Numbered from the stretch's first letter, positions 7,699-33,382 are shown. The stretch: 64,000 bases of DNA from Candidatus Latescibacterota bacterium (GCA_965222075.1 OZ244937.1:5123891-5187890), one strand, 5' to 3'. The notes: generated from the letters alone by a model not told the origin. Numbers and translations are program-made.

Positions 7699-7944
7699 TT
7701 GTCAATACCCGATTTGCATGGTCGGCCCCGGGGGCCTGATGCGCCACGGCAGGCAACCGTCGCGAGCGTGGCGCGCCAGGCGTTCGAGCGTCTTGATGCC
7801 GACGGCGTGATTGACCTGCAACGGGACGGCAGGGCGACGGACGGCCACTATCGGATCGAACTTGCCTCTCTGCCACACCGTGCAAAGGCCGGAGATTACA
7901 TCGTGATGGCGCTGAGAGCCTTCATGGAGGAGGAGATGAAATGA
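7699..7944 (+). CDS. Small hypothetical ORF coupled to hsdM
   Basis: 81-aa ORF with a TTG start. Its stop overlaps the hsdM ATG (ATGA at 7941-7944). No motif recognised, and coding status is uncertain. Confidence 0.3.
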   Translation: MSIPDLHGRPRGPDAPRQATVASVARQAFERLDADGVIDLQRDGRATDGHYRIELASLPHRAKAGDYIVMALRAFMEEEMK

Positions 7945-10133
7945 GTCCTGACGCAACCGGGTCCAGGGGCAGCAATCCGGACCGGGTCCCGCCGGCAAGT
8001 GGCCGTGGAGCGGGTGTGAGCAGCCTGAACATCAGCAACTTCATCTGGAGTATCGCCGATGACGTGCTGCGGGACGTCTATGTGCGGGGCAAGTACCGGG
8101 ATGTTATCCTGCCGATGACGGTTATCCGTCGCCTGGATGCGGTTCTGGAGCCAACGAAAGACGCGGTCCTCCAGATGAAGACCCAGTTGGACGGGGCGGG
8201 CGTGACCAACCAGGATGCGGCGCTGCGCCAGGCATCCGGCGAGGCCTTCTACAACGCCTCGCCTTTCCGGCTGCGCGATCTGACCTCCCGTGCCAGGCAA
8301 CAACAGTTGAGGGCCGACTTCGAGGCGTATCTCGACGGTTTCTCACCCAACGTTCAGGAGGTGCTGGAGAAGTTCAAGTTTCGCAATCAGATTCCGACGC
8401 TGGTCGATGCGGATGTGCTCGGGTTCCTGCTGGAGAAGTTCCTGGACCGCTCGGTCAACCTCAGCCCCAAACCCGTGTTGAATGCAGACGGGTCCGTGCG
8501 TGTGGAGGGTCTGGACAACCATGGGATGGGTACGGTCTTCGAAGAGCTGATTCGGCGTTTCAACGAGGAAAACAACGAGGAGGCCGGCGAGCATTTCACG
8601 CCGCGCGACGTCGTGCAGCTGATGGCGCGGCTGATTTTCATGCCGGTTGCCGATGAGGTCCGGTCGGGCACCTACCTGGTGTACGACGGCGCTTGTGGCA
8701 CCGGCGGGATGCTGACGGTGGCCGAAGAGACGCTGACCCAACTCGCCACCGAACACGGCAAGGAGGTCGCGGTCCACCTGTACGGCCAGGAGGTCAACCC
8801 TGAGACCTACGCCATCAGCAAGGCCGACCTTATCCTCAAGGGCGAGGGCGTGGAAGCCGACAATATTCAGTACGGCTCGACCCTCTCCGCCGATGCCTTC
8901 CCGTCCCGCGAGTTCGATTTCATGCTCTCCAATCCGCCTTATGGCAAGAGCTGGAAGAGCGACCTGGAACGCATGGGCGGTAAGAGAGAGATGCGCGACC
9001 CGCGCTTTCTGATCGAGCACGATGGCGAGCCAGAGTACTCGCTGGTCACCCGTTCCAGCGACGGCCAGATGCTGTTTCTGGCCAATATGTTGAGCAAGAT
9101 GAAGCAGGATACGCCGCTGGGCAGCCGCATCGCGGAGGTCCACAACGGCAGTTCGCTGTTCACGGGCGACGCCGGGCAGGGCGAGAGCAATATCCGGCGC
9201 TGGATTATCGAGAGCGACTATCTGGAGGCGATTGTGGCGCTGCCGCTCAATATGTTCTACAATACCGGCATTGCGACTTATATCTGGGTGTTGACGAATC
9301 GCAAACCGGCGCATCGCCGGGGCAAGGTGCAGCTCATCGACGCCACGCAGTGGTCCAGGCCGCTGCGCAAGAATCTCGGCAATAAGAACTGCGAGCTGTC
9401 GGACGAGGATGTCCGGCGTATCTGCGATACTTTCCTCGCGTTTGAGGAGAGCGAGCAGTCGAAGATTTTCCCCAACGAGGCGTTCGGGTATTGGAAGGTC
9501 ACGGTCGAGCGACCGTTGCGGCTCACCGTCGATTTGTCACCGGACCGTCGCGAGGGATTCCGAGCCGCCTGTTGTGAGGCAAAGGAAGAGCCGCTTGCGG
9601 ACGCTATTGATCGGGTGGCGACAGTGCTGGGCGCCGGGCCTCACCGCGACTTCAACCGATTCATGGAAGCCGTTGTGGCGAATGCCTCCGCGCATGGCGT
9701 CAAGTTGACGGCCAGGCGGAAGAACCTGCTGCAGATGGCGCTGGCATCCCGCGACGAGGCCGCTGAGCCAGTCATCAAGAAGAGCCACCGGCCGGACGCG
9801 GTGGAACCGGACCCGATCCGCGGTCTGGCCGAAGCTACTGTGGATGGCGAGCGCCGCGTCATCGAATACGAGCCTGACGGTGAGTTGCGCGATACCGAGC
9901 AGGTGCCGCTGCTCGACGAGGGCGGTATCGAGGGTTTTCTGCGCCGCGAGGTGCTGCCCTATGCCGCCGATGCGTGGTACGACCCGGGCAGCGTCAGGGT
10001 GGGGTACGAGGTCAGTTTCACGCGCTATTTTTACAAGCCGCAGCCGCTGCGCTCGCTGGCGGAGATCCGGGCCGATATTCTGGCGGTGGAGCAGGAGACG
10101 GAGGGGTTGCTGGGGGAGATTATCGGCGGGTAG
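7941..10133 (+). CDS. hsdM: Type I restriction-modification system, methyltransferase subunit M
   Basis: 'NFIWSIADDVLRDVY..YRDVILPMTVIRRLD' HsdM N-domain. SAM motif 'VYDGACGTGGML' and catalytic 'LSNPPYGKSW' are present. Confidence 0.92.
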   Translation: MSPDATGSRGSNPDRVPPASGRGAGVSSLNISNFIWSIADDVLRDVYVRGKYRDVILPMTVIRRLDAVLEPTKDAVLQMKTQLDGAGVTNQDAALRQASGEAFYNASPFRLRDLTSRARQQQLRADFEAYLDGFSPNVQEVLEKFKFRNQIPTLVDADVLGFLLEKFLDRSVNLSPKPVLNADGSVRVEGLDNHGMGTVFEELIRRFNEENNEEAGEHFTPRDVVQLMARLIFMPVADEVRSGTYLVYDGACGTGGMLTVAEETLTQLATEHGKEVAVHLYGQEVNPETYAISKADLILKGEGVEADNIQYGSTLSADAFPSREFDFMLSNPPYGKSWKSDLERMGGKREMRDPRFLIEHDGEPEYSLVTRSSDGQMLFLANMLSKMKQDTPLGSRIAEVHNGSSLFTGDAGQGESNIRRWIIESDYLEAIVALPLNMFYNTGIATYIWVLTNRKPAHRRGKVQLIDATQWSRPLRKNLGNKNCELSDEDVRRICDTFLAFEESEQSKIFPNEAFGYWKVTVERPLRLTVDLSPDRREGFRAACCEAKEEPLADAIDRVATVLGAGPHRDFNRFMEAVVANASAHGVKLTARRKNLLQMALASRDEAAEPVIKKSHRPDAVEPDPIRGLAEATVDGERRVIEYEPDGELRDTEQVPLLDEGGIEGFLRREVLPYAADAWYDPGSVRVGYEVSFTRYFYKPQPLRSLAEIRADILAVEQETEGLLGEIIGG

Positions 10134-11423: not shown

Positions 11424-11447
11424 AGTAAATTTTGTTATTGCACAATC

Positions 11448-14673: not shown

Positions 14674-14688
14674 TCATGGTGTTGGGTA

Positions 14689-14707
14689 GGGAGACGGAGA
14701 GGCTGTT
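14689..14707 (+). repeat. Possible short fourth relic of the hsdM 3' end
   Basis: GGGAGACGGAGAGGCTGTT matches GGGAGACCGAGAGGCTGTT (in 11278-11300) at 18/19. The match is short, so this is tentative. Confidence 0.35.
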
Positions 14708-14733
14708 AAATCAAATCATAACAGGAGTCTAAG

Positions 14734-15216
14734 ATGAAACTGAAAAAATTGTTCAAGAATTTCAACTTGGAAAAAATAAAATTTGGTCCAAGTGTAGCAG
14801 CAGCGGAGATAGCCTTCAAGCCGGCTGACAAAAATGCCGCTTGGGAGTTGTATATCGAGATGTTGACCCGGATCGTCACTCAACCCCTGCCTTCTGCAGC
14901 GGGGGACGAAAAGACGGCTCTGGACAGCATTTATGCACTTTTCGGAATTACCCGCGAGATTCTGCGTCGACATGGGCGTGGTACAATACAGTTCAGCAAG
15001 GTTGCGATACCAGTGCTGAACCAAGTGGTGCGGCCTTTTACCGCAAAGTGGCACAAGGAGAGTATAGCAGGAGCTTTTGATTGCGAAAGCAAACGAAAGG
15101 AATTTCGTGGAGAACTGGAAATCCTGCAAAGTGAATTGCGAAACTATAATTCCATGTTGGCGAGTATTGCCAGCGTGGAAGATTTGACTAATTTAGAACG
15201 AACAGCACCCGAGTAA
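14734..15216 (+). CDS. Hypothetical protein, gene 1 of the five-gene cassette
   Basis: 160-aa ORF. AGGAG lies 7 nt upstream of the ATG. No recognisable domain. AT-rich. Confidence 0.6.
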   Translation: MKLKKLFKNFNLEKIKFGPSVAAAEIAFKPADKNAAWELYIEMLTRIVTQPLPSAAGDEKTALDSIYALFGITREILRRHGRGTIQFSKVAIPVLNQVVRPFTAKWHKESIAGAFDCESKRKEFRGELEILQSELRNYNSMLASIASVEDLTNLERTAPE

Positions 15217-15247
15217 GGTAAATGGGTCAGGAAAGGAGCCCAACGTC

Positions 15248-15727
15248 ATGGCTGATGAAACGAAAAACATCTTCATAAGTCACATCCATGAAGATGATAA
15301 AGGCCTCGGCAAGCTCAAGAGTCTGCTGAAGGACAACGGGATGACCATCCGGGACTATTCAATCAACGCGGATAATCCCAACAACGCCCATTCAGAAAGC
15401 TACATCAAGTCCGAGATTCTTGCACCGCGCATTCGACAATCAAGTACGTTGGCTGTTTATATTTCGCCCGAAACTAAAGGCAGCCAGTGGGTGGACTGGG
15501 AGATTGAGTATGCCCATAAACAAGACAAACGAATTGTAGGAGTTTGGGCGCATGGAGAAAGCGGGTGCGAAGTCCCGGAAGCATTGGATAACTACGCCGA
15601 CGCTGTAGTTGGTTGGACGGGTAATCGCATCATTGACGCGATAAACGGAAAAATCGATGGTTGGGAAAATCCGGACGGTACAAAAAGCACGCCGCGAGGA
15701 GACATCAGCCGGTATAGCTGTCGTTAG
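15248..15727 (+). CDS. TIR-like (ThsB/DUF1863-type) domain protein, gene 2 of the cassette
   Basis: 'KNIFISHIHEDDKGLGKLKSLL' and 'GSQWVDWEIEYA' match the bacterial TIR-like/ThsB pattern. AAAGGAG lies upstream. Confidence 0.7.
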   Translation: MADETKNIFISHIHEDDKGLGKLKSLLKDNGMTIRDYSINADNPNNAHSESYIKSEILAPRIRQSSTLAVYISPETKGSQWVDWEIEYAHKQDKRIVGVWAHGESGCEVPEALDNYADAVVGWTGNRIIDAINGKIDGWENPDGTKSTPRGDISRYSCR

Positions 15728-15737
15728 AAACGTCAAT

Positions 15738-16346
15738 ATGAAACTATTCTCCTATGTCGTCGCTCGTGACTATGGTTTTGCGCCCAACCCTTTTTTTGGA
15801 ATATGTACATTAGCCACCTGCAAACCAAGAGTTCGGAAGGCAGCCTCCATAGGAGACTGGATTATCGGCACGGGCAGCAGCCAAAATGACAGACGAGGCT
15901 ATCTTGTTTATGCCATGTGCGTAACGGAAACAATGACATTTAATGAGTATTGGGAAGACGAGCGGTTCCAAAGGAAAAAGCCGAACATGAGGGGAAGCAT
16001 GAAGCAGGCATTCGGCGACAACATCTACTTTCAGAATGATGCTGGTCAGTGGCAGCAGCAGGATTCTCATCACAGTTATGAGGACGGTTCGCCCAACCCG
16101 TACAATATTTGCCACGATACACAGACGGACAGAGTCCTGCTCAGCAAGGACTACGTATATTGGGGTGGCCCAGGACCTGAAATTCCTACAAGGTTCAGAG
16201 ACTACGAGGGATGCGATATTTGCGCTAAGCGCAACCACAAATGCCGGTTTCCACAAGGATTGGTCAGGGAATTTGCTACGTGGTTGCGGTCTTTGGACGC
16301 GAGGGGTTATCTTGGAAAACCTTTAGGTTGGAGCAAAACACCATGA
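15738..16346 (+). CDS. Nmad2-like (nucleotide-modification-associated domain 2) protein, gene 3 of the cassette
   Basis: N-terminus 'MKLFSYVVARDYGFAPNPFFGICTLATCKPRVRKAASIGDWIIGTGS' matches my recollection of the Nmad2 signature. ATG 15738 is chosen because the track start at 15657 overlaps the TIR gene. Confidence 0.6.
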   Translation: MKLFSYVVARDYGFAPNPFFGICTLATCKPRVRKAASIGDWIIGTGSSQNDRRGYLVYAMCVTETMTFNEYWEDERFQRKKPNMRGSMKQAFGDNIYFQNDAGQWQQQDSHHSYEDGSPNPYNICHDTQTDRVLLSKDYVYWGGPGPEIPTRFRDYEGCDICAKRNHKCRFPQGLVREFATWLRSLDARGYLGKPLGWSKTP

Positions 16347-17518
16347 CCAGGAGTCTGTCATCCATGGATCGGCGAAACAAAGCGACTTCTGAGGGCACAA
16401 TTCTCCTGCGCGATTACATGCGAGAAATCGAGCCCACCGATAAACTTCCTCAGGACAATCTGCAACCGGTTTTGATGGGGCTGTTTGGCGAGGTTGGCAG
16501 TATCATGGCAACCGCTAAGAAGCACCTCCGGGAAAAAACAGCATATACTGGATACCAGCAGGTGGTGGAGGAAGAATTCGGCGATGCGCTTTGGTACTTC
16601 ACTACATTGTGCCGGCGTCTTGGCATTGGCGTTGACACCATCCTCTCCAAAGCGGTGAATCAAGACAAATACAGCAAGAGCATCGCTGCAAGCGACCTTC
16701 TGGACAGCCCGGTTTCTCATATCTCGTCGGTCAGTGCATTGCCTGATCTTGATAAGACACTCCTGAATCTGGGACAGGCTACGGCGGCATTGCTTGGCAT
16801 CAAGAGCTTGGATGAACAGACTCACGATTTGCTACAAACTTTCTCGGATCGCTACTTGCAGGCACTTCAAGCGGCAAACGTAAGTTTTTCAAAGATTGCT
16901 CATATGAACATAGAGAAAACGTGTGGACGTTTTCTTGAACCCAATGCGTCAGAGTTACCAACGTTCGACGACAAATTCCCGGATGAGGAACGGCTTCCCC
17001 GGCATTTCGAGATCAAAGTCACGCAACGAAAAAACGGGCAAAGTTATCTGCAATGGAATGGTGTATTTATCGGCGACCCGCTCACGGATAATATCCTTGA
17101 CCCGGATGGCTACCGATTCCATGATGTGTTTCATTTTACACATGCTGCCATTCTTCACTGGTCTCCTACCTTTCGCGCCTTGATAAAGCATAAACGCAAG
17201 AGTGATCCGAAGTTGGATGAGGCTGAGGATGGTGGCAGAGCGAAAGTCGTTGAGGAAGGACTTACCGCGTGGATATTTTCATGCGCCAAACATCTCAATT
17301 TCTTTCAGGGGCAGAATAGCGTCTCCTTTGACTTGCTAAAGACCGTGCAGCAGTTCGTGCAGGGATACGAAGTGGAAAAATGTCCTCTTAAGCTATGGGA
17401 ACGGGCTATACTGAAAGGATATGAGGTTTTCAGACTGGTACGGGATAACAACGGTGGGATCGTGATTGGAAATCGCGAGACTCGTACCATCGAGTACAAG
17501 TCAATTGATGGAGAATAG
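16343..17518 (+). CDS. MazG-like nucleoside-triphosphate pyrophosphohydrolase-fold protein with a C-terminal extension, gene 4 of the cassette
   Basis: 'GLFGEVGSIMATAKKHLRE...VEEEFGDALWYFTTLCRRLGI' is the MazG EExx(E/D) helix pair. ATG 16343 overlaps the upstream stop (ATGA). Confidence 0.7.
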   Translation: MTRSLSSMDRRNKATSEGTILLRDYMREIEPTDKLPQDNLQPVLMGLFGEVGSIMATAKKHLREKTAYTGYQQVVEEEFGDALWYFTTLCRRLGIGVDTILSKAVNQDKYSKSIAASDLLDSPVSHISSVSALPDLDKTLLNLGQATAALLGIKSLDEQTHDLLQTFSDRYLQALQAANVSFSKIAHMNIEKTCGRFLEPNASELPTFDDKFPDEERLPRHFEIKVTQRKNGQSYLQWNGVFIGDPLTDNILDPDGYRFHDVFHFTHAAILHWSPTFRALIKHKRKSDPKLDEAEDGGRAKVVEEGLTAWIFSCAKHLNFFQGQNSVSFDLLKTVQQFVQGYEVEKCPLKLWERAILKGYEVFRLVRDNNGGIVIGNRETRTIEYKSIDGE

Positions 17519-17521
17519 CGC

Positions 17522-24660: not shown

Positions 24661-24720
24661 GTGACGACTGACACCAGCAAAAGGGGCTTGAGCAATTTCA
24701 TCTGTCCGATGACTCGGAAA
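24661..24720 (+). repeat. Second, more degraded hsdR 5' relic
   Basis: GTGACGACTGACACCAGCAAAAGGGGCTTGAG... reads 'VTTDTSKRGLSNFIC', parallel to 'MTTDTSEKGLESLIC'. Confidence 0.5.
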
Positions 24721-24762
24721 CGCTCGACGCGAGGGATGAATTTTCCGCAATGGAGATAGTTG

Positions 24763-26022
24763 ATGATTACGCTGATTGAAGCCCTGAACTACCGCTGTTT
24801 ACGGTATGTGCAGAGACCTCTGAACCCGTTTCATGCCCTGGTCGGCCCGAATGCGTCGGGTAAGACAACCTTTTTGGACGTTATCGGTTTTCTGCGTGAT
24901 CTGGTATCCGAGGGGTTGGACACGGCCCTGTCGGCGCGTGCCTTGAATCCTGAAGAGCTTCTCTTTCGGCGGCAAGGGGACGGGCTGGAACTGGCGGTCG
25001 AGGCACGGATTCCCGAGGCGCTGCGCAAATTGACGTCAAAACCGGATTTGGACACGGTAAGGTACGAGGTGGCTATCGGATTTGAGGAAACACAGCGCCA
25101 GTTCGAGTTCAAGGCCGAGCGCCTGTTATTGAAAAAGGCAAAGGATTTAGGGCCGCTACAGCGCTCATTATTCCCCATGTCGCCCAGCGCGCCGGGTTCG
25201 TTGCTGACCAATATCCGCAAACAAGACAATAAGCTCGTGATCAACAAAGTATCAGGTGGGAATGACAATTTCTACAGCGAGACCTATAATCGTCCGGGCA
25301 AGGGCTGGGCGCCTTCGATCAAACTGGGACCGCAAAGATCGGCCCTGGGCCACCTTCTGGTAGATGAAAGCGCTTTTCCCGTGGCGATATGGTTTCAGAA
25401 ATATCTGATCACCGGAGTGCAGAGGTTTGTGCTCAACAGCCTTGCGATCAAGCGTCCCAGTTCTCCAACGCGGGCTGTGGGTTTTTTGCCGGATGGGTCA
25501 AATCTGCCATGGGTTGTCGCTCGTCTGCGCCACAAAGACCAGGAACGACATCGCGCCTGGATCAAGCACCTGCAAACCGCTCTGCCCGATCTGGTGGACA
25601 TCACAACTTTCGAGCGCCCGGAAGATAAGCATTGTTATATGATCTACGAGTATGAGGAAGGACTGAAAGTGCCTTCGTGGCTGGTTTCCGATGGCACACT
25701 TCGACTTACGGCACTCACCTTGCCCGCATATCTGACCGATCTTCAAGGTATTTACCTGATAGAGGAACCGGAGAATGGGGTGCATCCGAGGGCGGTGTCA
25801 ACCGTGTACGATTCCCTTTCTTCTATGTATGAAGCCCAGGTGTTGTTAGCGACCCATTCGCCGGTAGTACTGAGTACAGCCAGAATGGATGATGTGCTTT
25901 GCTTTGCCAAAGATGACGATGGTTCAACAGACATTGTTCTCGGTTCCGAACATCCCTTGCTTCAAAAGTGGCAGGGCGAGGTCGATCTTGGCACATTGCT
26001 TGCATCGGGAGTTTTGGGATGA
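24763..26022 (+). CDS. AAA15/ABC-type ATPase
   Basis: Walker A 'GPNASGKTT', signature-like 'SDGTLRL', Walker B 'IYLIEEPENGVHP' and H-loop 'LATHSP'. The track start is TTG 24760. Confidence 0.8.
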   Translation: MITLIEALNYRCLRYVQRPLNPFHALVGPNASGKTTFLDVIGFLRDLVSEGLDTALSARALNPEELLFRRQGDGLELAVEARIPEALRKLTSKPDLDTVRYEVAIGFEETQRQFEFKAERLLLKKAKDLGPLQRSLFPMSPSAPGSLLTNIRKQDNKLVINKVSGGNDNFYSETYNRPGKGWAPSIKLGPQRSALGHLLVDESAFPVAIWFQKYLITGVQRFVLNSLAIKRPSSPTRAVGFLPDGSNLPWVVARLRHKDQERHRAWIKHLQTALPDLVDITTFERPEDKHCYMIYEYEEGLKVPSWLVSDGTLRLTALTLPAYLTDLQGIYLIEEPENGVHPRAVSTVYDSLSSMYEAQVLLATHSPVVLSTARMDDVLCFAKDDDGSTDIVLGSEHPLLQKWQGEVDLGTLLASGVLG

Positions 26023-26062
26023 ACCGGAAAGACCTGGTTGTTCTCGCGGCTGACAAAGACAT
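26019..26062 (+). pseudogene. 5' stub of the ATPase partner gene (interrupted by an IS)
   Basis: The ATG overlaps the ATPase stop (ATGA 26019-22). It reads 'MNRKDLVVLAADKD' up to the IS junction. Confidence 0.7.
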
Positions 26063-27508
26063 CAATGGTTCGGTCAATTTTAGGCAGCAATTTTGCCATA
26101 ATCGCGTAGCCTTTGGTATTGAGAGGATTTTTTCATCAAATTTAGGTCGAGATCTAACATTGAGAAAATATGCTGGAGAAAAAATGTGTTGAAATAACAG
26201 GCTTTTATGCTTGCCATAGAAAAGGTTCCAGGCTCAGTGTCTGCATACGCCTGTAGGTGCTCCAGTTTGGCTAAATTGAGGGTTGTCAGAGACGCATTGA
26301 AGTGGAAATCCAGTCGGGCTTGATCTCTGGCTTGACAGTCGCATAAGCCGGTAAACTGTTTGGCATCCCTGAAGATAAATTCGATCTGAAATCTTGCTTT
26401 GTAATATCTGACAAGCGTCTTAGCGTCTAATTCTGTATCGGTGGAAAACAAGATCGTATATTTCTTCTTGTCCTTGTTGCGCTCATCTACCAAGACGACG
26501 ATTTTCAAATTGCGTTTCAAGGAGACATGGTTCAGGATGAGGGTATAGATGGCGATGCCATCTTGTGTCTCAACATATGAAAACCGCGACAGATCTTGCC
26601 AGTTGACTTTGCCATCGTAGGTCTTTTGCCTGCCGCTGCCGTGTTCGCGTTTTGGACCGGTATAGAGAAAGCGCATATTGGCGTCGCCACGTAATTTGCC
26701 GATCTGGTGCAGGTCCAATTCACAGACCCCATTGACAAATTTCTTCTTGCTAAAATAACCATCGCCAACGACATATTTTTCGGGCTCTAACAAGCTGGGT
26801 TGGACATCGATGAGATGCTGTAAATACTGATCCAGAAGGGTTTCGTCATCCTCTGCCTGTTTGGAACGTTTCTTTTTCGATTTGGCTTTTCCCTTTTTCT
26901 TGGTGCACTTTTTAGAGGTGGGCTTGTTCTTCTCTTTGGGCTTGGTGACTTCCTCTTTGGGCCTAGCATCAGACGCTTGAGGTTCCTCTCCTGGATCGGT
27001 TTGGCGAACCGAGAGCGTAAAGCCAGTGTTTTTCAAAATATCCACGATCGCCACACTGGAGACTTCCAACCCCTTTTCTGAACGACGATGACAGCCGTTC
27101 CAGAATGAATCCAGGCCATACGTCTTTTTGCCTGACTTAGATACGAAGGAAGCATCTATGACAATGATCCGGTCGCTTTCCCTTCCCAAGCCTTCATCGA
27201 TCACCGATCGGTTGAAAGCGACAAACGCAAAGGGTTTGGCAAACTGACGTGAATAAGTCTCCTCGGACACATCCGAATAACGCGATAGATTGCGGCAATT
27301 GATCTTGCCCCGTGCTGTTAGAATCGCTGTAAACACAGCGACCAAAAACTTCCTTTGAGGCTTGGAAATCTTGAAACTCTTGAGTATCTTTTCTGTCAGT
27401 TCCATTGTGCCGTCTCACTTGTCGAGGGGATCTTTGACTGGGTGGTTTAAGATCCCTACAATTTGTGGGTACGGCACTTTTTTGTCAAAATAAATAACCG
27501 AACTATTG
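26063..27508 (-). mobile_element. IS4-superfamily (IS4/IS701/IS1634-like) insertion sequence, 1446 bp
   Basis: Imperfect terminal inverted repeats CAATGGTTCGGTCAATTT / rc CAATAGTTCGGTTATTTA. 5-bp direct repeat GACAT at 26058-26062 and 27509-27513. Confidence 0.85.
26080..27405 (-). CDS. DDE transposase (YREK motif)
   Basis: 441-aa ORF. 'IVIDASFVSKSG', 'YVVGDGYFS' and 'YYKARFQIEFIFRDAKQ' give a Y(2)R(3)E(6)K motif. It has a Lys-rich insert. Confidence 0.9.
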   Translation of the reverse strand: MELTEKILKSFKISKPQRKFLVAVFTAILTARGKINCRNLSRYSDVSEETYSRQFAKPFAFVAFNRSVIDEGLGRESDRIIVIDASFVSKSGKKTYGLDSFWNGCHRRSEKGLEVSSVAIVDILKNTGFTLSVRQTDPGEEPQASDARPKEEVTKPKEKNKPTSKKCTKKKGKAKSKKKRSKQAEDDETLLDQYLQHLIDVQPSLLEPEKYVVGDGYFSKKKFVNGVCELDLHQIGKLRGDANMRFLYTGPKREHGSGRQKTYDGKVNWQDLSRFSYVETQDGIAIYTLILNHVSLKRNLKIVVLVDERNKDKKKYTILFSTDTELDAKTLVRYYKARFQIEFIFRDAKQFTGLCDCQARDQARLDFHFNASLTTLNLAKLEHLQAYADTEPGTFSMASIKACYFNTFFLQHIFSMLDLDLNLMKKSSQYQRLRDYGKIAA

Positions 27509-28099
27509 GACATGGAACATGCGTTGAAAGGGTTGCTGTCGAGGCCGCAGGCACTGGGTATTCGGGCAATCGAGGCGGACATCAGTATCCATCCGGGACA
27601 CGACCCTGCATGCGCGGGTTATGGCGTTGATTACTTGTCGAATTTCTCGGAATATTATCGCTATGGTCTGCTCATGTTTGATCACGAAGGAAGCGGCAGA
27701 GAGCAGACCCAGCCCCAGGCGTTGCAAGAGACTCTTAACAATGACTTCGCGCGTTCAGCATGGGGCGAACGCGCAAGAGCAGTCATCTTGTCGCCGGAAC
27801 TTGAGGCGTGGGTATGGAGTGATTCTCTCCATGTTGACGCGGTCGCAGGATGGAAGAACCGGCAGCCTTCGCTCCGTAGCTGGATGGTTGAGCAAGGCTG
27901 GCTGGAGGAAGGGGAGGTTAAGCCCGTACGGCCCAAAGAGGCGTTTCAAGCAGCCTTGCGCGAGGCGCGAATACCACGCAGTTCATCCCTGTATCAGCAG
28001 ATTGCGGAAAAGGTTTCCTTACACCGATGTACGGATCGTTCGTTCCAGGAATTCAAAGACGTTTTGGGAAGTTGGTTTCCGCGAGACAGCCGGTATTGA
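27509..28099 (+). pseudogene. 3' body of the ATPase partner gene
   Basis: Reads 'DMEHALKGLLSRPQALGIRAIEADISIHPGHDP...' in the same codon phase as the 5' stub relative to the GACAT duplication. No family recognised. Confidence 0.7.
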
Positions 28100-28198
28100 A
28101 GGACGCATCTATAATGTCGGAGCTACCAGGGCGGCTCGCTGGTATCCGGGTAGACCGCCATCTGGAATTGTGCCTGAAAATAGATAATAGGCCAAAAA

Positions 28199-28229
28199 GC
28201 ATAATTTTGGCATAATTTTGGCATAATTG
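28199..28229. repeat. Short tandem repeat GCATAATTTTG x2 plus a partial copy, in an AT-rich spacer
   Basis: Read directly from the sequence. It lies in the very AT-rich 28190-28319 region upstream of the next ORF. Confidence 0.8.
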
Positions 28230-28319
28230 ATTTTATAACTATCTGTTTTTATTGTATTATTCCTTTATCTTTTCTTGGCAAAATATAAATCTATAAGGTA
28301 AAAAAAGTGGTAATTCATA

Positions 28320-29063
28320 ATGCTCGGCGGGGCTTGGGTGTTTCGTGGAACGCGGGTGCCCGTATTTACCCTCTTCGAGAACCTTGAACCGGATGGACCG
28401 ATGGACAAACGCGTCAACCGTTCGAGCGATGTCCCGAAGATGACGGCAGGGCGAGCCGCCCTGGTCGGGCTGATGGACTGCTATCTGCGCGGCTTGCTGG
28501 ACCCGTTCGTGACGCTGCTGGAGGTGCATAAACTCATGTATTTTATGCAGGCCGCGGGCGAGCCGTTGAGGTTGAAGTTCGCCAAAGGCCCTTACGGACC
28601 GTATGCCGAAAATCTCCGGCATGTGATGAACGCCATTGAAGGACATCTGGTGTCCGGCTATGCCGATGGCGGCGATGCGCCTGACAAGCAGCTGGAACTG
28701 GTGCCGGGCGCGCTTGCGGATGCCCGTGCATTTCTTGAGCATAAGGCTGATACGCAGGCTCGCTTTAAAAGGGTTTGCGATCTCGTCGAAGGGTTCGAGT
28801 CATCGTTCGGCCTGGAACTGCTCACAACGGTTCACTGGGTCGTCGGCGAGGAGGGAGCCCGGACGCTCGACGATGTAGTGGAGGGCACCTACGACTGGAA
28901 CGAGAGAAAGCGCCAGTTCTCCCGGCGACAGATCAAGATCGCATTCGATGTCTTATCGGAGAAGGGCTGGATTGAGCATCTCGACCTGTGCGGGACAGCG
29001 CATCTGCACGACGCCGTGTCTGATTCGCCTGAAGAGGACAACGATAAAGGTTGTAACCCATGA
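28320..29063 (+). CDS. Chimeric ORF: DUF433 fragment fused to a Panacea/DUF4065-like (SocA-type antitoxin-like) domain
   Basis: The first ~25 aa, 'GGAWVFRGTRVPVFTLFENLE', match the DUF433 core (compare 24101). This is followed by 'LEVHKLMYFMQAAGEPLRLKFAKGPYGPYAENL'. Internal starts at 28401 and 28440 are possible. Confidence 0.5.
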   Translation: MLGGAWVFRGTRVPVFTLFENLEPDGPMDKRVNRSSDVPKMTAGRAALVGLMDCYLRGLLDPFVTLLEVHKLMYFMQAAGEPLRLKFAKGPYGPYAENLRHVMNAIEGHLVSGYADGGDAPDKQLELVPGALADARAFLEHKADTQARFKRVCDLVEGFESSFGLELLTTVHWVVGEEGARTLDDVVEGTYDWNERKRQFSRRQIKIAFDVLSEKGWIEHLDLCGTAHLHDAVSDSPEEDNDKGCNP

Positions 29064-30244
29064 GTAGCCGACGCTTGCAGATAACATTACAGCCTGACGT
29101 GTTGAGGTGGGCGCGGGAGCGGGCAGGTATTGACACCGAGCAATTGGCTCGCAAGATACAGGTTAAGGTCGAGCGTGTCATAGAGTGGGAGCGGACTGGC
29201 AACATCAGCATTGCCCAGGCAGACAGGCTCGCCGAACGCACCCATACCCCTTTGGGTTTGCTGTACCTTTCAAAGCCACCCGAAGACAATCTGCCCATAC
29301 CTGACTTCAGAACCCGCCACGCCGATGCCTCTTCGCTCCGTCCGAGTCTCGACCTCCTGGAAACGGTGTATGCGATGCAGCAGCGACAGGACTGGATGCG
29401 AGAAGAACTGATCGAGAGCGGTGCGGAACCGCTGGAGTTCGTTGGCGCCTGCATCCGTGCGCAAAGTCACGTGAACGTGGCCAGTGCAATGCGGAACGTG
29501 CTGGGGATCGAGGTTGGCTGGGCGGCAAACATGGACTCCTGGATTGCCGCGCTCAGGTTCCTTCGGAACAGATTGGACACGGCTGGCGTGCTCGTAGTTT
29601 TCAACGGGGTCGTAGGCAACAGTACCAGCCGAAAGCTTGATCCGGACGAGTTTCAAGGCTTTGCCCTGGTGGATGAATACGCCCCATTGATATTTGTGAA
29701 CAACGCAGATTACATAGCAGCCAAGATGTTTACTCTTGCCCACGAACTGGCCCATTTATGCGTCGGAGAGTCGGGTGTATCCCAATTTGATAGGTTGCAA
29801 CCGTCACAGAATGATACCGAGCGATTCTGTGATCAGGCGGCAGCTGAGTTTTTGGTGCCCGAGTCCAGTTTTCGGGATTTTTGGGGCCTCGTGGGCCGTA
29901 ATACCTTGGCGCCCACAAGTGTTCCTTTTGGGTCGATTGCACGTCAATTCAAGGTTAGCGCAATCGTGGCGGCCCGGCGAGCCTTGGACCTGGATCTGAT
30001 TGACCTCGAAACCTTTTTCACCTTCTATGAAAACCATAAACAACAAGGAGGAACCAATCGCCCGACAACGGATGGTGGCAATTTTTGGAGTACACAGAGA
30101 TGGCGCATAGGTCCACGCTTCGCGGCTGCGGTCGTCCGCGCTGCGAAAGAAGGGCGCCTGACTTATCGGGAAGCTTGTTCGCTCACCGGGCTGAGCGGCG
30201 AGACCTATGAAAACCTGGCCGTCAAGATGGATATTACACTATGA
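29060..30244 (+). CDS. XRE-family HTH + ImmA/IrrE (COG2856) zinc metallopeptidase
   Basis: N-terminal HTH 'LRWARERAGIDTEQLARKIQV...IEWE' and the 'FTLAHELAHLCVGESG' HExxH motif. ATGA overlap with the upstream ORF. Confidence 0.8.
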   Translation: MSSRRLQITLQPDVLRWARERAGIDTEQLARKIQVKVERVIEWERTGNISIAQADRLAERTHTPLGLLYLSKPPEDNLPIPDFRTRHADASSLRPSLDLLETVYAMQQRQDWMREELIESGAEPLEFVGACIRAQSHVNVASAMRNVLGIEVGWAANMDSWIAALRFLRNRLDTAGVLVVFNGVVGNSTSRKLDPDEFQGFALVDEYAPLIFVNNADYIAAKMFTLAHELAHLCVGESGVSQFDRLQPSQNDTERFCDQAAAEFLVPESSFRDFWGLVGRNTLAPTSVPFGSIARQFKVSAIVAARRALDLDLIDLETFFTFYENHKQQGGTNRPTTDGGNFWSTQRWRIGPRFAAAVVRAAKEGRLTYREACSLTGLSGETYENLAVKMDITL

Positions 30245-30331: not shown

Positions 30332-33300
30332 TTGACCACCGATACCTCCGAACACGGTCTTGAAAGCCTGATCTGTACGGCGCTGACCGGCCTCCCGAAC
30401 GATACGACGCCGTCAGGCGACGCGGGTGAGCGGCCGGCCACCTATGGCGTGGGCTGGCTTTGGGGGGACCCGCGTGATTATGACCGCGAGTACTGTGTGG
30501 ACCTGGCTCAGCTTTCCGCTTTTCTGAGTGTGACCCAGCCCGAGGTTGCGGGGTTGCTGGATCTCGGCCTGGACAGCCCGAGGCGGCGCAAGTTTCTGGC
30601 TCGCCTGCAGGGTGAGGTCACCAGGCACGGCACGATCGATGTGCTGCGCAGGGGGATCAAGCACGGACCGCATCAGGTCGACCTGTTCTACGGGACACCG
30701 TCGCCGGGCAATGAGAAGGCCAGGGTTCTGTACAAGCAGAATCGCTTCAGTGTCACCCGGCAGCTCCGATACAGCCGCGACAATACCCGGCTCGCGCTGG
30801 ATCTGTGCCTGTTCATCAACGGTCTGCCGGTTGCTACGTTCGAGCTGAAGAACAGCCTTACGAAGCAGACGGTAGAGGACGCTATTGAGCAGTACAAGCG
30901 CGATCGAAGCCCGGGCGAGAAGCTTTTTGAGTTCGGTCGCTGTCTGGTTCACTTCGCGGTTGACGACCACGAGGTGCGCTTCTGCACCCATCTGAAGGGC
31001 AAGGCGTCCTGGTTCCTGCCTTTCAACCAGGGTTGGGATGATGGCGCCGGGAATCCTCCGAACCCGAACGGGCTGAAGACGGACTATCTGTGGAGAGAGG
31101 TGCTCACGCGCGACGGGCTCACGGATATCATCGAGAACTACGCCCAGATTGTGGAGACGAAGGATGAAAAGACCGGGCGCAGGAAGCGGGAGCAGATATG
31201 GCCGCGCTATCACCAGCTTGATGTGGTGCGCAGGCTGCTGTCGGATATGTCCGACCTGCCTGCAGCGCAGTACGCTGCGCAGGCAGGGACGAAGGCGGGC
31301 AGGCGCTATCTGATCCAGCACTCGGCCGGTAGCGGCAAGTCGAATTCCATCGCGTGGCTGGCGCACCAGCTCATCGGCCTGAAGAAAGAGAATGCTCCGG
31401 TAGTGGACTCGGTCATCGTCGTTACGGACCGCAGGGTGTTGGACCGTCAGATCAGGGATACTGTGAGACAGTTCGCACAGGTTGCCTCCATTGTCGGGCA
31501 CGCGGAGCGGTCCGGAGACCTCAGGACCTTTCTCAAGTCGGGCAAGAAGATCGTCATCACCACTGTCCAGAAATTCCCCTTCGTTCTGGATGAGATCGGC
31601 GATGAGCACCGGGGACGCCGGTTCGCGATCATCATCGACGAGGCCCATTCGAGCCAGGGCGGTCGGATGTCTGCCGCGGTTTCCATGGCGCTGGGGGAGG
31701 CCGGCGCGGGCGAGGAAGAGGATACGACCGAGGACAGGATCAACCGGCTGATGGAGTCCAGGCAGATGCTGCCCAACGCCAGCTACTTCGCGTTTACCGC
31801 GACGCCCAAGAACAAGACGCTGGAGATCTTCGGGGAGCCTGAAACCAGGGGCGAGCAGGTCGGCCACGTTCCATTTCACAGTTACACGATGAAACAGGCG
31901 ATCCAGGAAGGGTTCATCCTGGACGTGCTTGAGCACTACACGCCGGTGGGTAGCTACTACCGGCTTATGAAAACGGTAGAGGACGATCCTCTCTTCGACA
32001 CCAGGCGGGCGCAGAGGAAGCTTCGGAGATATGTGGAATCGCACGAGCACGCCATCCGCCAAAAGGCGGAGATTATGGTCGATCACTTTCACGATCACGT
32101 TGTTGCGCGCCGGAAGATCGGCGGCCAGGCGCGGGCTATGGTGGTGACCAGCGGTATTGAGCGAGCGATCCAGTACTTTCACGCCTTCGAGGCGTATCTG
32201 GAGGAACGGAAGAGTCCCTACCGGGCCATCGTCGCGTTCTCGGGTGAACATGAATACGGCGGACAGAAGGTCACCGAGGCGTCGCTGAATGGCTTTCCGT
32301 CGGGCCGGATCGCCGACAGGATCCAGGAAGATCCGTATCGGTTCCTGATCTGCGCCGACAAATTTCAGACCGGGTACGACGAGCCGCTTTTGCACACGAT
32401 GTATGTGGACAAGGTGCTTTCGGGCATCAAGGCGGTGCAGACGCTCTCCCGCCTGAATCGCGCGCATCCGCAGAAGCACGATACCTTCGTGCTGGACTTC
32501 ACGAACGACGCGGACGATATCAAAGCGTCTTTCGAGGACTACTACCGCACCACCATCCTGGCCGAAGAGACCGACCCGGACAAGCTGCACGACCTGAAGG
32601 CGAGTCTGGATGGTTATCAGGTGTACGGTTGGGACCAGGTCGAGGAGCTGGTGTCGCTGTACCTGGAGGGTACGGACCGGGACAGGCTCGATCCGATTCT
32701 GGATGCCTGCGTGGCAGTGTACAGATCCGAGCTGGATGAGGATGGACAGGTCGACTTCAAGGGCAATGCCAAGGCGTTCGCCCGCACCTACGCCTTCCTT
32801 GCGCCGATTCTGCCCTATACCAGCGTCGAGTGGGAGAAGCTCTCGATATTTCTGAACTTCCTCGTCCCGAAGCTGCCGGCCCCGGTCGAGGAGGACCTGT
32901 CGAAGGGCATTCTTGAGGCCATCGACATGGACAGCTACCGCGTGGAGGTCCGGGCGATGATGAAGATCGCCCTGTCCGACGCGGACGCGGAGATCGGGCC
33001 GGTGCCGGCGAGCGGCGAATTTCGCAAGCCCGAGCCGGAGATCGATCGCCTGAGCAACATACTGAGGATGTTCAACGAGTTGTTCGGGAATATCGAATGG
33101 AAGGATGCAGACAAGATCGGAAGGGTTATCGCCGAGGAGTTGCCGGCGAAAGTCTCCGCTGACCGGGCCTATCGGAACGCGATGGAGAACTCGGACAGGC
33201 AGAACGCCCGGATTGAGCACGACAAGGCGCTCGAACAGGCGGTGATCGAGCTGCTCTCCGATCACGCCGAGCTATTCAAGCAGTTCAGCGACAATGACTC

Positions 33301-33382
33301 GTTCCGAAAATGGCTTTCGGAAACCATCTTTCAGGCGACGTACCGTCAAGGGGTCGAAGGTGGAAACGTTCCGGTCCCGTAG
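30332..33382 (+). CDS. hsdR: Type I restriction-modification system, restriction/helicase subunit R
   Basis: 1016 aa, TTG start. Walker A 'HSAGSGKSNSIAW', DEAH box 'IIIDEAHSSQGG' and helicase C 'ADKFQTGYDEPLLHTMYVDK'. Confidence 0.92.
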   Translation: MTTDTSEHGLESLICTALTGLPNDTTPSGDAGERPATYGVGWLWGDPRDYDREYCVDLAQLSAFLSVTQPEVAGLLDLGLDSPRRRKFLARLQGEVTRHGTIDVLRRGIKHGPHQVDLFYGTPSPGNEKARVLYKQNRFSVTRQLRYSRDNTRLALDLCLFINGLPVATFELKNSLTKQTVEDAIEQYKRDRSPGEKLFEFGRCLVHFAVDDHEVRFCTHLKGKASWFLPFNQGWDDGAGNPPNPNGLKTDYLWREVLTRDGLTDIIENYAQIVETKDEKTGRRKREQIWPRYHQLDVVRRLLSDMSDLPAAQYAAQAGTKAGRRYLIQHSAGSGKSNSIAWLAHQLIGLKKENAPVVDSVIVVTDRRVLDRQIRDTVRQFAQVASIVGHAERSGDLRTFLKSGKKIVITTVQKFPFVLDEIGDEHRGRRFAIIIDEAHSSQGGRMSAAVSMALGEAGAGEEEDTTEDRINRLMESRQMLPNASYFAFTATPKNKTLEIFGEPETRGEQVGHVPFHSYTMKQAIQEGFILDVLEHYTPVGSYYRLMKTVEDDPLFDTRRAQRKLRRYVESHEHAIRQKAEIMVDHFHDHVVARRKIGGQARAMVVTSGIERAIQYFHAFEAYLEERKSPYRAIVAFSGEHEYGGQKVTEASLNGFPSGRIADRIQEDPYRFLICADKFQTGYDEPLLHTMYVDKVLSGIKAVQTLSRLNRAHPQKHDTFVLDFTNDADDIKASFEDYYRTTILAEETDPDKLHDLKASLDGYQVYGWDQVEELVSLYLEGTDRDRLDPILDACVAVYRSELDEDGQVDFKGNAKAFARTYAFLAPILPYTSVEWEKLSIFLNFLVPKLPAPVEEDLSKGILEAIDMDSYRVEVRAMMKIALSDADAEIGPVPASGEFRKPEPEIDRLSNILRMFNELFGNIEWKDADKIGRVIAEELPAKVSADRAYRNAMENSDRQNARIEHDKALEQAVIELLSDHAELFKQFSDNDSFRKWLSETIFQATYRQGVEGGNVPVP

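Follow-up and report, generated by a model that had tools for sequence, protein, structure and literature searches.

The closest described relatives of the gene pair reported here are MAD3 and MAD4 of MADS, an eight-gene Methylation-Associated Defence System (Maestri et al., 10.1101/2023.03.30.534895). In the MADS of P. aeruginosa, deletion of mad3 or of mad4 abolishes defence, and mad5 can be deleted only when mad2 or mad3 is deleted as well; the published MacSyFinder model for MADS makes MAD6-8 mandatory and MAD3/4 accessory (10.1101/2023.03.30.534895). The genetics of MAD3 and MAD4 comes from within the MADS operon only, where other genes are also needed, and the two proteins could depend on them. 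One paper assigns Mad4, like DUF4276, to the Toprim superfamily (PMC12065111).

Pairs in which an ABC ATPase is accompanied by a TOPRIM protein are also what Hma systems most commonly carry as embedded cargo; one of them, PADLOC HEC-01 (Hma-embedded candidate 1; Payne et al., 10.1101/2024.01.29.577857), protected E. coli from none of the phages tested. The best-understood model of such pairs is PARIS, in which an ATPase scaffold frees the nuclease on sensing an anti-restriction protein of the phage; in its phylogeny of the AAA15/21 ATPases of defence, the PARIS paper annotates DUF4276 among the partner domains (PMC11464382).

Here we describe a MAD3/MAD4 pair whose mad4-family gene is split by an insertion sequence (IS). 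The window is the whole stretch of DNA that was analysed, 64,000 nucleotides in length. We put the probability at roughly 0.7 that the pair is an autonomous, horizontally mobile MAD3/MAD4 ATPase-plus-Toprim cassette, related to PADLOC HEC-01 and now inactive.

Families of the two proteins

The features of the module, with the basis for each, are as follows.

24763..26022, + strand: mad3-family gene, ABC-type (AAA_21/AAA_15) ATPase, 419 aa, intact (HMM and motifs)
26019..26062, + strand: 5' piece of the mad4-family gene, holding codons 1-14 plus two bases of codon 15 (sequence)
26058..26062, no strand: target-site duplication GACAT, left copy (sequence)
26063..27508, no strand: insertion sequence, 1446 bp (absent from the orthologous site in L001-L004)
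26080..27405, - strand: IS transposase, 441 aa, DDE type, IS4/IS701 group (Pfam)
27509..27513, no strand: target-site duplication GACAT, right copy (sequence)
27514..28099, + strand: 3' piece of the mad4-family gene, holding the last base of codon 15, then codons 16-209 and stop (HMM on the repaired protein)

The ATPase ORF runs from 24760 (TTG) or 24763 (ATG) to 26022, and the ATG at 24763 is the start used by the homologues (MITLIEA..., 419 aa). Its translation carries a Walker A motif (GPNASGKTT, with K34), a signature-like SDGTLRL, a Walker B with the catalytic Glu (IYLIEEPE; IYLIEEPENGVHP) and an H-loop (ATHSP), as expected of the AAA_21/AAA_15 group of ABC ATPases, including the long insert that separates Walker A from the signature. 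The stop of mad3 overlaps the start of mad4 in an ATGA at 26019-26022; an earlier note on this DNA had pointed out both the motifs and this overlap, and the translation bears it out. The ATPase scores 494.6 bits against NCBIfam NF047739 antiphage_MADS3 (curated cut-off 420 bits; residues 1-418 versus model 1-427) and 110.5 bits against Pfam AAA_21 (cut-off 27; E = 2e-31; residues 23-371), and by its NCBIfam score it is a member of the MAD3 family.

The partner ORF begins with MNRKDLVVLAADKD and then continues into foreign sequence from 26063, so that the unrepaired 5' piece reads into the IS and gives a 57-aa chimeric peptide. Deletion of 26063-27513 restores an uninterrupted MAD4 ORF of 209 aa, just as the earlier note had proposed, and an intact form of this gene exists: four related loci (L001-L004) represent the same locus with an uninterrupted site, and their 209-aa product (P0001) is 96% identical to the repaired protein over 100% of its length. 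The ATPase and its L001 orthologue share 93% protein identity. Apart from the insertion, mad3 and the repaired mad4 show neither frameshifts nor stop codons, and their dN/dS values are 0.22 and 0.17.

The earlier note could not place the partner in any family. The IS-deleted reconstruction does find a place: it scores 210.7 bits against NCBIfam NF047734 antiphage_MADS4 (curated cut-off 160 bits; residues 4-204 versus model 1-206), and an alignment of MAD4 sequences matches the canonical MAD4 in L089, a validated MADS operon with MAD2-8 all above their cut-offs, over its full length (hhalign probability 99.7, E = 3.5e-27). By these comparisons the repaired partner is a member of the MAD4 family. 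With both proteins above their NCBIfam cut-offs, the partner family is one already described, and what had seemed unplaceable now belongs to a named family covered by curated models.

The insertion sequence

The 1446-bp element at 26063 and its flanking GACAT direct repeats are as the earlier note had described them. Its termini are imperfect inverted repeats (CAATgGTTCGGTcA / CAATaGTTCGGTtA) of ∼14-20 bp (CAATRGTTCGGTYA...), it is present as a single copy in the window, its G+C content is 45% as against 53-55% in the flanking genes, and its transposase gene is oriented opposite to the operon. The transposase is above the Pfam cut-offs of DDE_Tnp_1 (52.4 bits, cut-off 23) and DDE_5 (44.3 bits), and none of the NCBIfam IS-family models is above cut-off: the best is IS701_3 (80.7 bits, cut-off 170), followed by IS4_4 (70.3 bits, cut-off 250). 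The label 'IS4-like' thus holds insofar as the element can be assigned to the IS4/IS701 group of DDE elements; it is not a clear IS4 (IS4_4 being below cut-off), and we assign it to no named family.

In blastn comparisons, positions 24703-26062 of the window correspond to 5014-6373 of L001, and positions 27508-28327 to 6368-7185. Because both blocks abut there, the empty site of L001 is continuous and holds a single GACAT. The comparison independently proves that the IS was inserted into mad4, after codon 14, and the dN/dS values together with the lack of other frameshifts and stop codons show that this was recent. Since the gene is split at this point, a product of the 3' piece would be without the first beta-strand and the conserved D12, so that the module is almost certainly inactive in this genome, the ATPase gene still being intact. 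A natural IS knock-out and an intact allele in a close relative together make a ready allele pair for a test of autonomy.

Toprim-like features of MAD4

A Toprim fold is expected to have an alpha/beta core in which four strands alternate with helices, a conserved acidic residue behind beta-1 and a DxD-type motif behind beta-3. The AF2 model of the repaired MAD4 (pLDDT 91.2) alternates helices with strands, the latter at residues 4-10, 36-40, 63-71 and 102-107. Its three best PDB matches in a Foldseek search are to the C-terminal Toprim region of Xanthomonas OLD (6njw, E = 3.7e-3, probability 0.99, with a TM-score of 0.46, which is below 0.5). In the model D12 follows beta-1, D71-x-E73 follows beta-3 and E110/E112 follow beta-4, all of them conserved: among representatives that are only 36-52% identical to the query, D71 and E110 never vary and D12 and E112 are conserved to at least 90% (canonical MAD4 has DCD at the position of D71-x-E73). 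The TOPRIM flavour that the earlier note had sensed in the partner is backed by the OLD match, by the acidic residues and by the published grouping of Mad4 (PMC12065111). Pfam DUF4276 gives 12.6 bits (E = 0.16), below its gathering threshold of 30.2, hhalign of MAD4 against a true HEC-01B/DUF4276 protein is insignificant, and DUF4435 or AriB gave no match in Pfam or PADLOC. We describe MAD4 as Toprim-like, a remote assignment, and as a putative nuclease with four conserved acidic residues.

The host operon and the absence of MADS

The pair sits inside a type I restriction-modification (R-M) operon, downstream of hsdS and upstream of hsdR; the operon's own genes are the following.

7941..10133, + strand: hsdM (Pfam HsdM_N and N6_Mtase)
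20202..21539, + strand: hsdS (Pfam Methylase_S; NCBIfam type I S subunit, 114 bits)
30332..33382, + strand: hsdR, TTG start (Pfam HSDR_N, ResIII, SWI2_SNF2, T1R_D3-like; TIGR00348, 208 bits)

This stretched operon has gathered many other defence and toxin-antitoxin cassettes (∼10 unrelated cargo cassettes in the window), and the pair is here not free-standing: it is one of them. In L001, too, the intact pair is followed by an hsdR, and this hsdR and that of the window share 92% protein identity.

NCBIfam names of the 'equivalog' kind imply that a MAD3 and MAD4 pair comes from MADS, and the pair could in principle be the remnant of a genuine MADS system that has degraded; both curated cut-offs are passed, and a methyltransferase and a specificity subunit are encoded in the same operon. 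The rest of the operon makes this extremely improbable. MAD6, MAD7 and MAD8, the mandatory genes of the published model, were found neither by tblastn with probes from the validated operon (E <= 1e-6; the window and 80 related loci) nor by an NCBIfam scan that covered the 14.7-45.6 kb interval and took ORFs from 150 aa upwards, and no ORF in the window is big enough for MAD6 (1391 aa) or MAD8 (1858 aa), the longest being at most 1016 aa. HsdS scores 28.5 bits on the MAD5 model (cut-off 400), HsdM and HsdR are both of the classical type I kind, with 23% identity between HsdM and MAD2 across 41% of the length of HsdM, and the intact locus of L001 likewise reads hsdS-DUF433-MAD3-MAD4-hsdR. Despite its family names, the pair in this window is not part of a MADS system.

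As an explanation of this window, a degraded MADS system is refuted, with MAD6-8 missing and the MAD5 score too low.

Distribution and genomic contexts of the pair

A MAD3-like gene lies directly upstream of a MAD4-like gene in L001-L008 and in 80 of 80 species-representative loci; the two are separate, overlapping genes in the window as well as in all relatives. The earlier note had read the locus as a two-gene, defence-type module of an ATPase and a small partner, a reading that this constant adjacency supports, and it had set as a test that homologues of the partner should lie beside similar ATPases: they do so in all 80 representative genomes. We found no third conserved gene (each other neighbour family occurs in at most 10 of the 80 loci) and, among the neighbour families of these loci, no conserved membrane partner. 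None of the 80 representatives has a MADS core gene although the equivalog models of NCBI will name their proteins 'methylation-associated defense system MAD3/MAD4', and the name therefore overstates membership of that system.

The genomic contexts vary. Type I R-M genes are found at 10 of the 80 loci, Hma genes at eight and neither at 62 (counts from flanks of up to 10 kb with one probe per family, so that neighbouring defence systems are possibly undercounted). In L005-L008 the pair sits among metabolic genes and adjoins a VapBC pair, and the stand-alone copies are mostly found among housekeeping genes; a stand-alone copy scores 494.7 and 214.2 bits on NCBIfam MAD3 and MAD4, like the pair in the window (the validated operon L089 scores 547.5 and 233.2 bits). 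At the Hma loci the pair is part of tandem arrays with other ATPase-partner pairs, and in some (e.g. L088) it adjoins a true HEC-01 pair. Identities are 51-83% across at least 12 phyla, which points to horizontal transfer, as is typical of defence genes.

Because the cassette is alone in most other genomes, we take it to be self-sufficient and not a subunit of MADS or of R-M. MAD3-MAD4 has the behaviour of a self-contained ATPase-Toprim cassette, one that was captured separately by MADS, Hma and type I R-M operons, and we infer a defence role for this MAD3/MAD4 clade.

The cassette also recurs on the same strand within three methylation-based systems, MADS (L089), type I R-M (the window, L001-L004 and 10 of the 80 loci) and Hma (eight of the 80), and this invites another interpretation: the pair may be non-autonomous, a functional subunit of whichever methylation-based system hosts it (here type I R-M), serving as its cleavage module or, like PrrC, as a guard set off by inhibition of the R-M enzyme; stand-alone copies would then be orphans or work with distant partners. 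It gains from the requirement for both mad3 and mad4 in P. aeruginosa MADS, from the constraint on mad5 deletion, which ties MAD3 to a toxic restriction activity, and from the precedent of PrrC, an ABC-type protein that lies within hsdMSR and is controlled by it (10.1101/2024.01.29.577857). We consider such a dependence unlikely: the 62 loci with neither R-M nor Hma genes in their flanks and the copies among metabolic genes in L005-L008 speak against it, the ∼10 unrelated cassettes in the operon of the window make position weak evidence of coupling, and the tandem arrays at Hma loci look like accumulation at a hotspot.

In a related and distinctly unlikely scenario, MAD3-MAD4 would be a portable 'plug-in' effector that is functionally coupled to any methylation-based immune system hosting it, to which it would supply the cleavage step or a PrrC/PARIS-like guard against an anti-restriction block. 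The IS in the effector gene would then be an escape from autoimmunity in a heavily rearranged R-M operon, and selection for broad compatibility of the module would explain why the clade is so highly conserved across at least 12 phyla of sponge-associated bacteria.

A role outside defence, be it as an ABC transport component, as an ATPase of DNA repair together with its accessory factor or as a type IV toxin-antitoxin pair, is very improbable. The stand-alone copies among housekeeping genes would suit it, the 'AbiEii toxin' label of Pfam AAA_21 hints at a toxin-antitoxin pair, and NCBIfam does give weak, P-loop-only matches of the ATPase to transporter ATPases and RecF; but the transporter matches span ∼20 P-loop residues and reach 10-20 bits against cut-offs of 200-500. 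There is no conserved membrane partner nearby, and nothing points to a transport function, the alternative that the earlier note had itself raised. Within MADS the family yields a phenotype in defence; the pair lies embedded in operons of R-M and Hma, and its identity across phyla suggests horizontal transfer.

Proposed mode of action

In the reading that we prefer, that of an autonomous cassette, mad3 and mad4 are translationally coupled through the ATGA overlap. MAD3 is an ABC-type ATPase of the AAA_21/AAA_15 kind that also occurs in OLD, Gabija, PARIS, Septu and HEC-01, and MAD4 the 209-aa putative effector, with a Toprim-like core and the conserved acidic residues D12, D71, E110 and E112. 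By analogy with PARIS, OLD and Gabija, MAD3 may serve as sensor and scaffold, holding or controlling the Toprim nuclease, until a cue from the phage, perhaps an anti-restriction protein, allows it to cleave nucleic acid in a metal-dependent manner. Both the nuclease activity of MAD4 and its control by the ATPase are carried over from these systems; in the literature searched, neither a nuclease activity nor an ATPase-nuclease complex is reported for any MAD3/MAD4 pair. For a specialist in defence systems, there is nothing surprising here.

Comparison with known systems

PrrC of the EcoprrI type I R-M system resembles the pair in that its gene, too, encodes an ABC-type NTPase and is nested on the same strand among hsd genes. 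PrrC, however, has its anticodon-nuclease domain within the one protein and is almost always embedded in type I R-M, whereas the MAD3/4-like pair mostly is not (62 of 80 loci).

With OLD and Gabija GajA the pair shares its ATPase (the N-terminus of MAD3 matches class 1 OLD, 6p74, with E = 1.8e-10), the structural match of MAD4 to the OLD Toprim region and acidic residues of the metal-binding type. In OLD and GajA, however, ATPase and Toprim are fused in one polypeptide, whereas the pair consists of two genes; the sequence similarity is confined to the ATPase motifs, and the structural match reaches a TM-score of only 0.46. PARIS (AriA and AriB, the latter a DUF4435 Toprim nuclease; PMC11464382) likewise has two genes, one for an ABC ATPase of the AAA_15/21 type and one for a Toprim effector. 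AriA and the ATPase of the window match only through the generic AAA_21 model (PADLOC), and MAD4, without a DUF4435 match, is with 209 aa much smaller than AriB (35 kDa).

The MAD3/MAD4 of MADS are of the same families and have the same gene order and overlap as the pair in the window, and the two MAD4 proteins share the motifs AD (after beta-1), FD.E/D.D, PELE.W.W, KP..PK and C.D..F...WFP. Identity to the canonical pair, however, is 35% for MAD3 and 29-30% for MAD4; the window is without the MAD6 kinase, MAD7, MAD8 and MADS-type MAD2 and MAD5, its operon being a classical hsdMSR; and, unlike the MADS members, most relatives of the pair stand alone.

HEC-01 also consists of an AAA_21-type ABC ATPase followed by a Toprim-like protein of ∼200 aa, and it too is nested in methylation-based systems, on the same strand as the host genes. 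In PADLOC the best model for the ATPase of the window is HEC-01A (135 bits, E = 7e-40, compared with E = 6e-31 for mad3), on which a true HEC-01A scores 590 bits. MAD4 of the window barely matches HEC-01B (19 bits, E = 1.8e-4, compared with 311 bits for a true HEC-01B), and a true HEC-01B finds its match in Pfam DUF4276 rather than in NCBIfam MAD4; for this reason the pair is best seen as a sister family of HEC-01, which on profile scores is related to the core family but lies outside it.

Genomic context of the gene pair

The feature is a MAD3/MAD4-family gene pair, related to HEC-01 (an ABC ATPase paired with a TOPRIM protein in PADLOC), within a type I R-M operon. It is surrounded by classical type I R-M genes; mad3–mad4 comes after hsdS and before hsdR, all on one strand, and has the same position in L001, a relative's contig in which the pair is intact. 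This single operon (7941–33382) is stretched to ∼25 kb by cargo on the same strand.

Features of the operon
7941–10133, + strand: hsdM (HsdM_N plus N6_Mtase)
10757–10999, same strand as operon: HicA
11448–12629, same strand as operon: Fic/DOC
12754–13393 and 24101–24642, same strand as operon: DUF433 with DUF5615 (PIN-like) pairs
13902–14228, same strand as operon: DUF2442
14368–14673, same strand as operon: further DUF433
15248–15727, same strand as operon: ThsB-like TIR
20202–21539, + strand: hsdS, type I S subunit (MAD5 model only 28.5 bits, cut-off 400)
22115–23581, same strand as operon: SLFN AlbA_2/HATPase_c_4 protein
24763 (ATG)–26022, + strand: mad3, ATPase of 419 aa (ORF list and raw sequence)
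26063–27508, − strand (transposase): insertion element of 1446 bp (sequence; inverted ends and GACAT flanks)
29060–30244, same strand as operon: HTH plus ImmA/IrrE protease
30332–33382, + strand: hsdR, type I R subunit

Three adjoining genes inside the operon (15657–18226) encode an Nmad2 domain (240 bits), MazG_C (276 bits) and a UDG-superfamily protein, and this trio has the look of a cassette for nucleotide modification or depletion. At 18272–18426 a 14-nt unit, CCTGATGAGGATTG, is perfectly repeated in tandem (∼11 copies); just 3′ of the repeat, between the cargo and hsdS, is an IS5-family transposase gene (18938–19753; NCBIfam IS5_3, 243 bits). The ORF at 28320–29063 opens with a DUF433 fragment (28322–28386, 75% identical to 24148–24212), and beyond that fragment its similarity is restricted to the C-terminal half of DarG, an antitoxin (NCBIfam 179 bits, cut-off 250; PADLOC DarG E = 3e-53), with no macrodomain in the ORF and no DarT seen nearby. 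This DarG-like cassette and the ImmA/IrrE gene are missing from the orthologous locus L001. Elsewhere in the window, a 586-aa Eco57I/Alw26I-type methyltransferase (41287–43047, − strand) weakly resembles type IIG and BREX PglX methylases (TIGR02987 65 bits, below cut-off).

Parts of the hsd genes are repeated: the 3′ end of hsdS at 21949–22005 (93% identical to 21466–21522) and the 5′ end of hsdR at 23860–23956 (85% identical to 30333–30429), the latter copy (region 23859–24104) being fused in frame to an hsdS-3′-like piece, which makes a chimeric ORF of 81 aa. Just upstream of mad3, at 24658–24700, is a third hsdR-5′-like stretch, a degenerate one (VTTDTSKRGLSNFIC). The repeats in these three regions are recombination scars, which suggests that recombination joined two type I operons differing in their cargo.

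The ATPase gene and its interrupted partner

mad3 is intact in the window, with an in-frame TTG at 24760 before its ATG. The motifs quoted in the earlier note (Walker A GPNASGKTT, with K34; SDGTLRL; IYLIEEPENGVHP; ATHSP) are all present in the translation, which has the full set of ABC motifs, and the ATGA by which the mad3 stop was said to overlap the downstream ORF is seen at 26019–26022. MAD3 belongs to the ABC-type ATPases of the AAA_21/AAA_15 group (Pfam AAA_21 E = 2e-31); it matches NCBIfam antiphage_MADS3 over its full length (494.6 bits, cut-off 420), and PADLOC reports HEC-01A and mad3.

The mad4 ORF begins MNRKDLVVLAADKD and then runs on into unrelated sequence. The earlier note had described a 1446-bp IS at 26063 flanked by GACAT, whose removal (26063–27513) restores a 209-aa frame, and we found both to be correct. 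The ends of the element are imperfect inverted repeats (CAATGGTTCGGTCA.../CAATAGTTCGGTTA...), GACAT is present on either side (26058–26062 and 27509–27513), and a DDE transposase of 441 aa is encoded; the element is single copy within the window, with a G+C of 45% (vs 53–55% for its surroundings). The deletion gives an open 209-aa frame, and an uninterrupted database protein (P0001, 209 aa) is 96% identical to the repaired MAD4 over the whole length. P0001 is encoded in four related contigs (L001–L004) that share the window's gene order, starting at the ATPase gene and continuing through hsdR and several genes downstream. By blastn, 24703–26062 of the window aligns to 5014–6373 of L001, and 27508–28327 to 6368–7185; as the two segments join there, the empty site is continuous and has one GACAT. 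We reject an assembly artefact, given the inverted ends, a flanking duplication of exactly 5 bp and an empty site that matches. The label 'IS4-like' is a rough one: thresholds are passed for Pfam DDE_Tnp_1 and DDE_5, but all NCBIfam IS-family models (best: IS701_3 and IS4_4) are under their cut-offs.

That mad4 was a pseudogene before the insertion is also rejected, as the gene, once repaired, is free of further lesions and shows a dN/dS of 0.17 against its L001 orthologue. Together with the dN/dS of mad3 (0.22, same comparison), this makes the insertion recent when set against the split between the window and L001 genomes. The module is almost certainly inactivated by the IS: the 3′ piece is without codons 1–14, hence without strand 1 and residue D12, its best possible start being an internal TTG at the extreme 3′ end of the IS, and the 5′ piece is now a 57-aa chimeric peptide. 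Some relatives (L047, L084 and L088) also appear degraded.

Family and fold of the partner

Plasmids were searched with the window ATPase to obtain a real MADS operon for comparison. The plasmid matches to MAD3 were all distant (at most 35% identity), one being on a Piscinibacter plasmid (L089) with a canonical MADS operon (HTH, methylase, ATPase, 215-aa protein, S-like protein, 1391-aa kinase, 557-aa protein and 1858-aa protein). NCBIfam identified MAD2 to MAD8 among its genes, each above cut-off, and the L089 genes served as a validated MAD1–8 probe set. A second plasmid match (L090) has a MAD3-like ATPase without an adjacent MAD4.

The earlier note could not place the partner in a family, but it can be assigned to MAD4, since the repaired protein matches the curated NCBIfam antiphage_MADS4 model (210.7 bits, cut-off 160) over its full length and hhalign aligns the MAD4 alignment with canonical MAD4 of L089, also full length (probability 99.7, E = 3.5e-27). 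Identity to the L089 proteins is 35% for MAD3 and 29–30% for MAD4. PADLOC gives only weak mad4 and HEC-01B matches for the repaired partner, and a PDB sequence search with the MAD4 profile gave chance matches only. The MAD4 family is large: at E ≤ 1e-3 it has 1578 clusters (50% identity), 516 of which reach E ≤ 1e-30. In a protein of 1203 aa (P0268) the MAD4-like domain covers residues 2–205; either the Toprim-like module is fused here to a long C-terminal part, or the gene call has run on.

The repaired MAD4 scores 12.6 bits with Pfam DUF4276, and the MAD4 profile has no significant hhalign match to a true HEC-01B/DUF4276 protein (E = 0.06), so the DUF4276 link rests on weak HMM matches, the fold match and literature. 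A true HEC-01B (from HEC-01), in contrast, matches Pfam DUF4276 and not NCBIfam MAD4, which makes MAD4 and HEC-01B sister families.

A confident AlphaFold model of MAD4, built on 37 homologues (pLDDT 91.2, pTM 0.86), has a predicted core of alternating strands and helices (strands 4–10, 36–40, 63–71 and 102–107), followed by a helical C-terminal part. Its top three Foldseek matches in PDB (6njw, 6njv and 6njx; E = 3.7e-3 to 1e-2, probability 0.97–0.99, TM 0.44–0.47) all correspond to the part of Xanthomonas OLD at the C-terminus that contains Toprim, and the matches beyond these are noise. Among representatives just 36–52% identical to the query plus canonical MAD4, residues D71, P109, E110, W114, K151, P152, P155 and K156 are invariant, and conservation is 90% or more for D12, D45 and E112. 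Strand 1 is followed by D12, strand 3 by D71-x-E73 (D-C-D in canonical MAD4 of L089) and strand 4 by P-E-L-E, as would be expected for a Toprim metal site. DUF4276 (of which Mad4 is a homologue) and RloB are described as Toprim members keeping the catalytic residues (PMC12065111). MAD4 probably belongs to Toprim. The loose likeness to TOPRIM/DUF4276 suggested in the earlier note is thus backed in its Toprim part by the OLD fold match, the acidic residues and that paper, the direct sequence link to DUF4276 being weak.

MADS genes in the window

A MADS system in the window is rejected, as MAD6–8 are absent by tblastn and, for the 14.7–45.6 kb section, by NCBIfam, no ORF is large enough for MAD6 or MAD8, and the R-M set is classical. 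The tblastn search of the window with the MAD1–8 probes returned MAD3, MAD4, one weak methylase-domain match and nothing more; NCBIfam found no MAD6–8 in the 20 larger ORFs (≥ 150 aa) of that section; and the longest window ORF is at most 1016 aa, vs 1391 aa for MAD6 and 1858 aa for MAD8. In the published MADS detection model MAD6–8 are mandatory and MAD3/4 accessory, 'not reliably detected in all systems' (10.1101/2023.03.30.534895).

The pair in other genomes

With one genome taken per species, 220 relatives were found and 80 loci (L009–L088) kept. These span at least 12 phyla (groups carrying the clade include Latescibacterota, Chloroflexota, Gammaproteobacteria, Nitrospinota, Binatia, Acidobacteriota, Acidimicrobiia, Spirochaetia and others) with MAD4 51–83% identical to the window's, which argues for horizontal spread of the pair. 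Many MAG names in the survey point to sponge symbionts (Poriferihabitaceae, Spongiisociaceae). This distribution of the MAD3/MAD4 clade indicates intense horizontal exchange inside one habitat, and a sponge-symbiont community of this kind is the probable source of the window.

A MAD3-like gene is directly upstream of MAD4 in every locus (80/80), and MAD6, MAD7 and MAD8 are found in none (0/80). Clustering of 1476 crude ORFs from the 80 loci yielded no conserved third gene, other neighbour families reaching at most 10 of 80; the upstream DUF433 gene and a 54-aa ORF seen in L001 were rejected as partners because they are not conserved. Recurrent neighbours (by Pfam) are mostly housekeeping genes. 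In L005–L008 the pair (84–86% identical) lies amid metabolic genes, adjoining VapBC. With extra probes, type I R-M genes were found nearby in 10 of the 80 loci, genes of the methylation-based Hma system (HmaB methylase and HmaC DUF499 ATPase, as assigned with PADLOC and Pfam) in eight, and neither in 62. One stand-alone copy has the same scores on the MAD3/MAD4 models as the window's pair.

In Hma loci the MAD3/4-like pair is often in tandem with other ATPase–partner pairs, including PDC-M07-type ones and a true HEC-01 pair (590 bits for HEC-01A, 311 bits for HEC-01B). Six Hma-embedded regions (L023, L026, L030, L042, L047 and L088; ∼3000–17000 each) each have from two to four pairs of an ABC ATPase and a small partner, arranged in tandem next to the genes for HmaB methylase and HmaC ATPase or in the space separating them. 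The pairs are of three sub-families: MAD3/4-like, true HEC-01, and a PDC-M07-like one whose partner (∼190 aa) is unannotated. These tandem pairs look like arrays of interchangeable effector cassettes.

Proposed function and relation to known systems

The mad3 and mad4 genes are translationally coupled, always paired and horizontally mobile, and an acidic cluster is conserved on the Toprim-like core of the partner. By analogy with PARIS (PMC11464382), OLD and Gabija, MAD3 would sense a cue and control MAD4, and MAD4 would cleave nucleic acid. We consider it likely (probability about 0.7) that the pair acts autonomously, as it is mostly found alone. The main rival, that the pair couples to whichever methylation system hosts it, seems unlikely. 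In the MADS system of P. aeruginosa, deletion of mad3 or mad4 abolishes defence, and mad5 (S subunit) is deletable only along with mad2 or mad3 (10.1101/2023.03.30.534895). HEC-01, a related pair, gave no protection in E. coli (10.1101/2024.01.29.577857). The defence role of the MAD3/MAD4 clade is putative. Overall, the reading of the locus as a two-gene defence module of an ATPase and a putative nuclease is supported, with the refinements described here.

Compared with MADS, the window pair shares the MAD3 and MAD4 families but is without the MADS core genes. Curated 'MADS' names are given to a large clade that, across the 80 loci, never co-occurs with these core genes, which supports the view that MAD3–MAD4 is an independent cassette, repeatedly captured by methylation-based systems.
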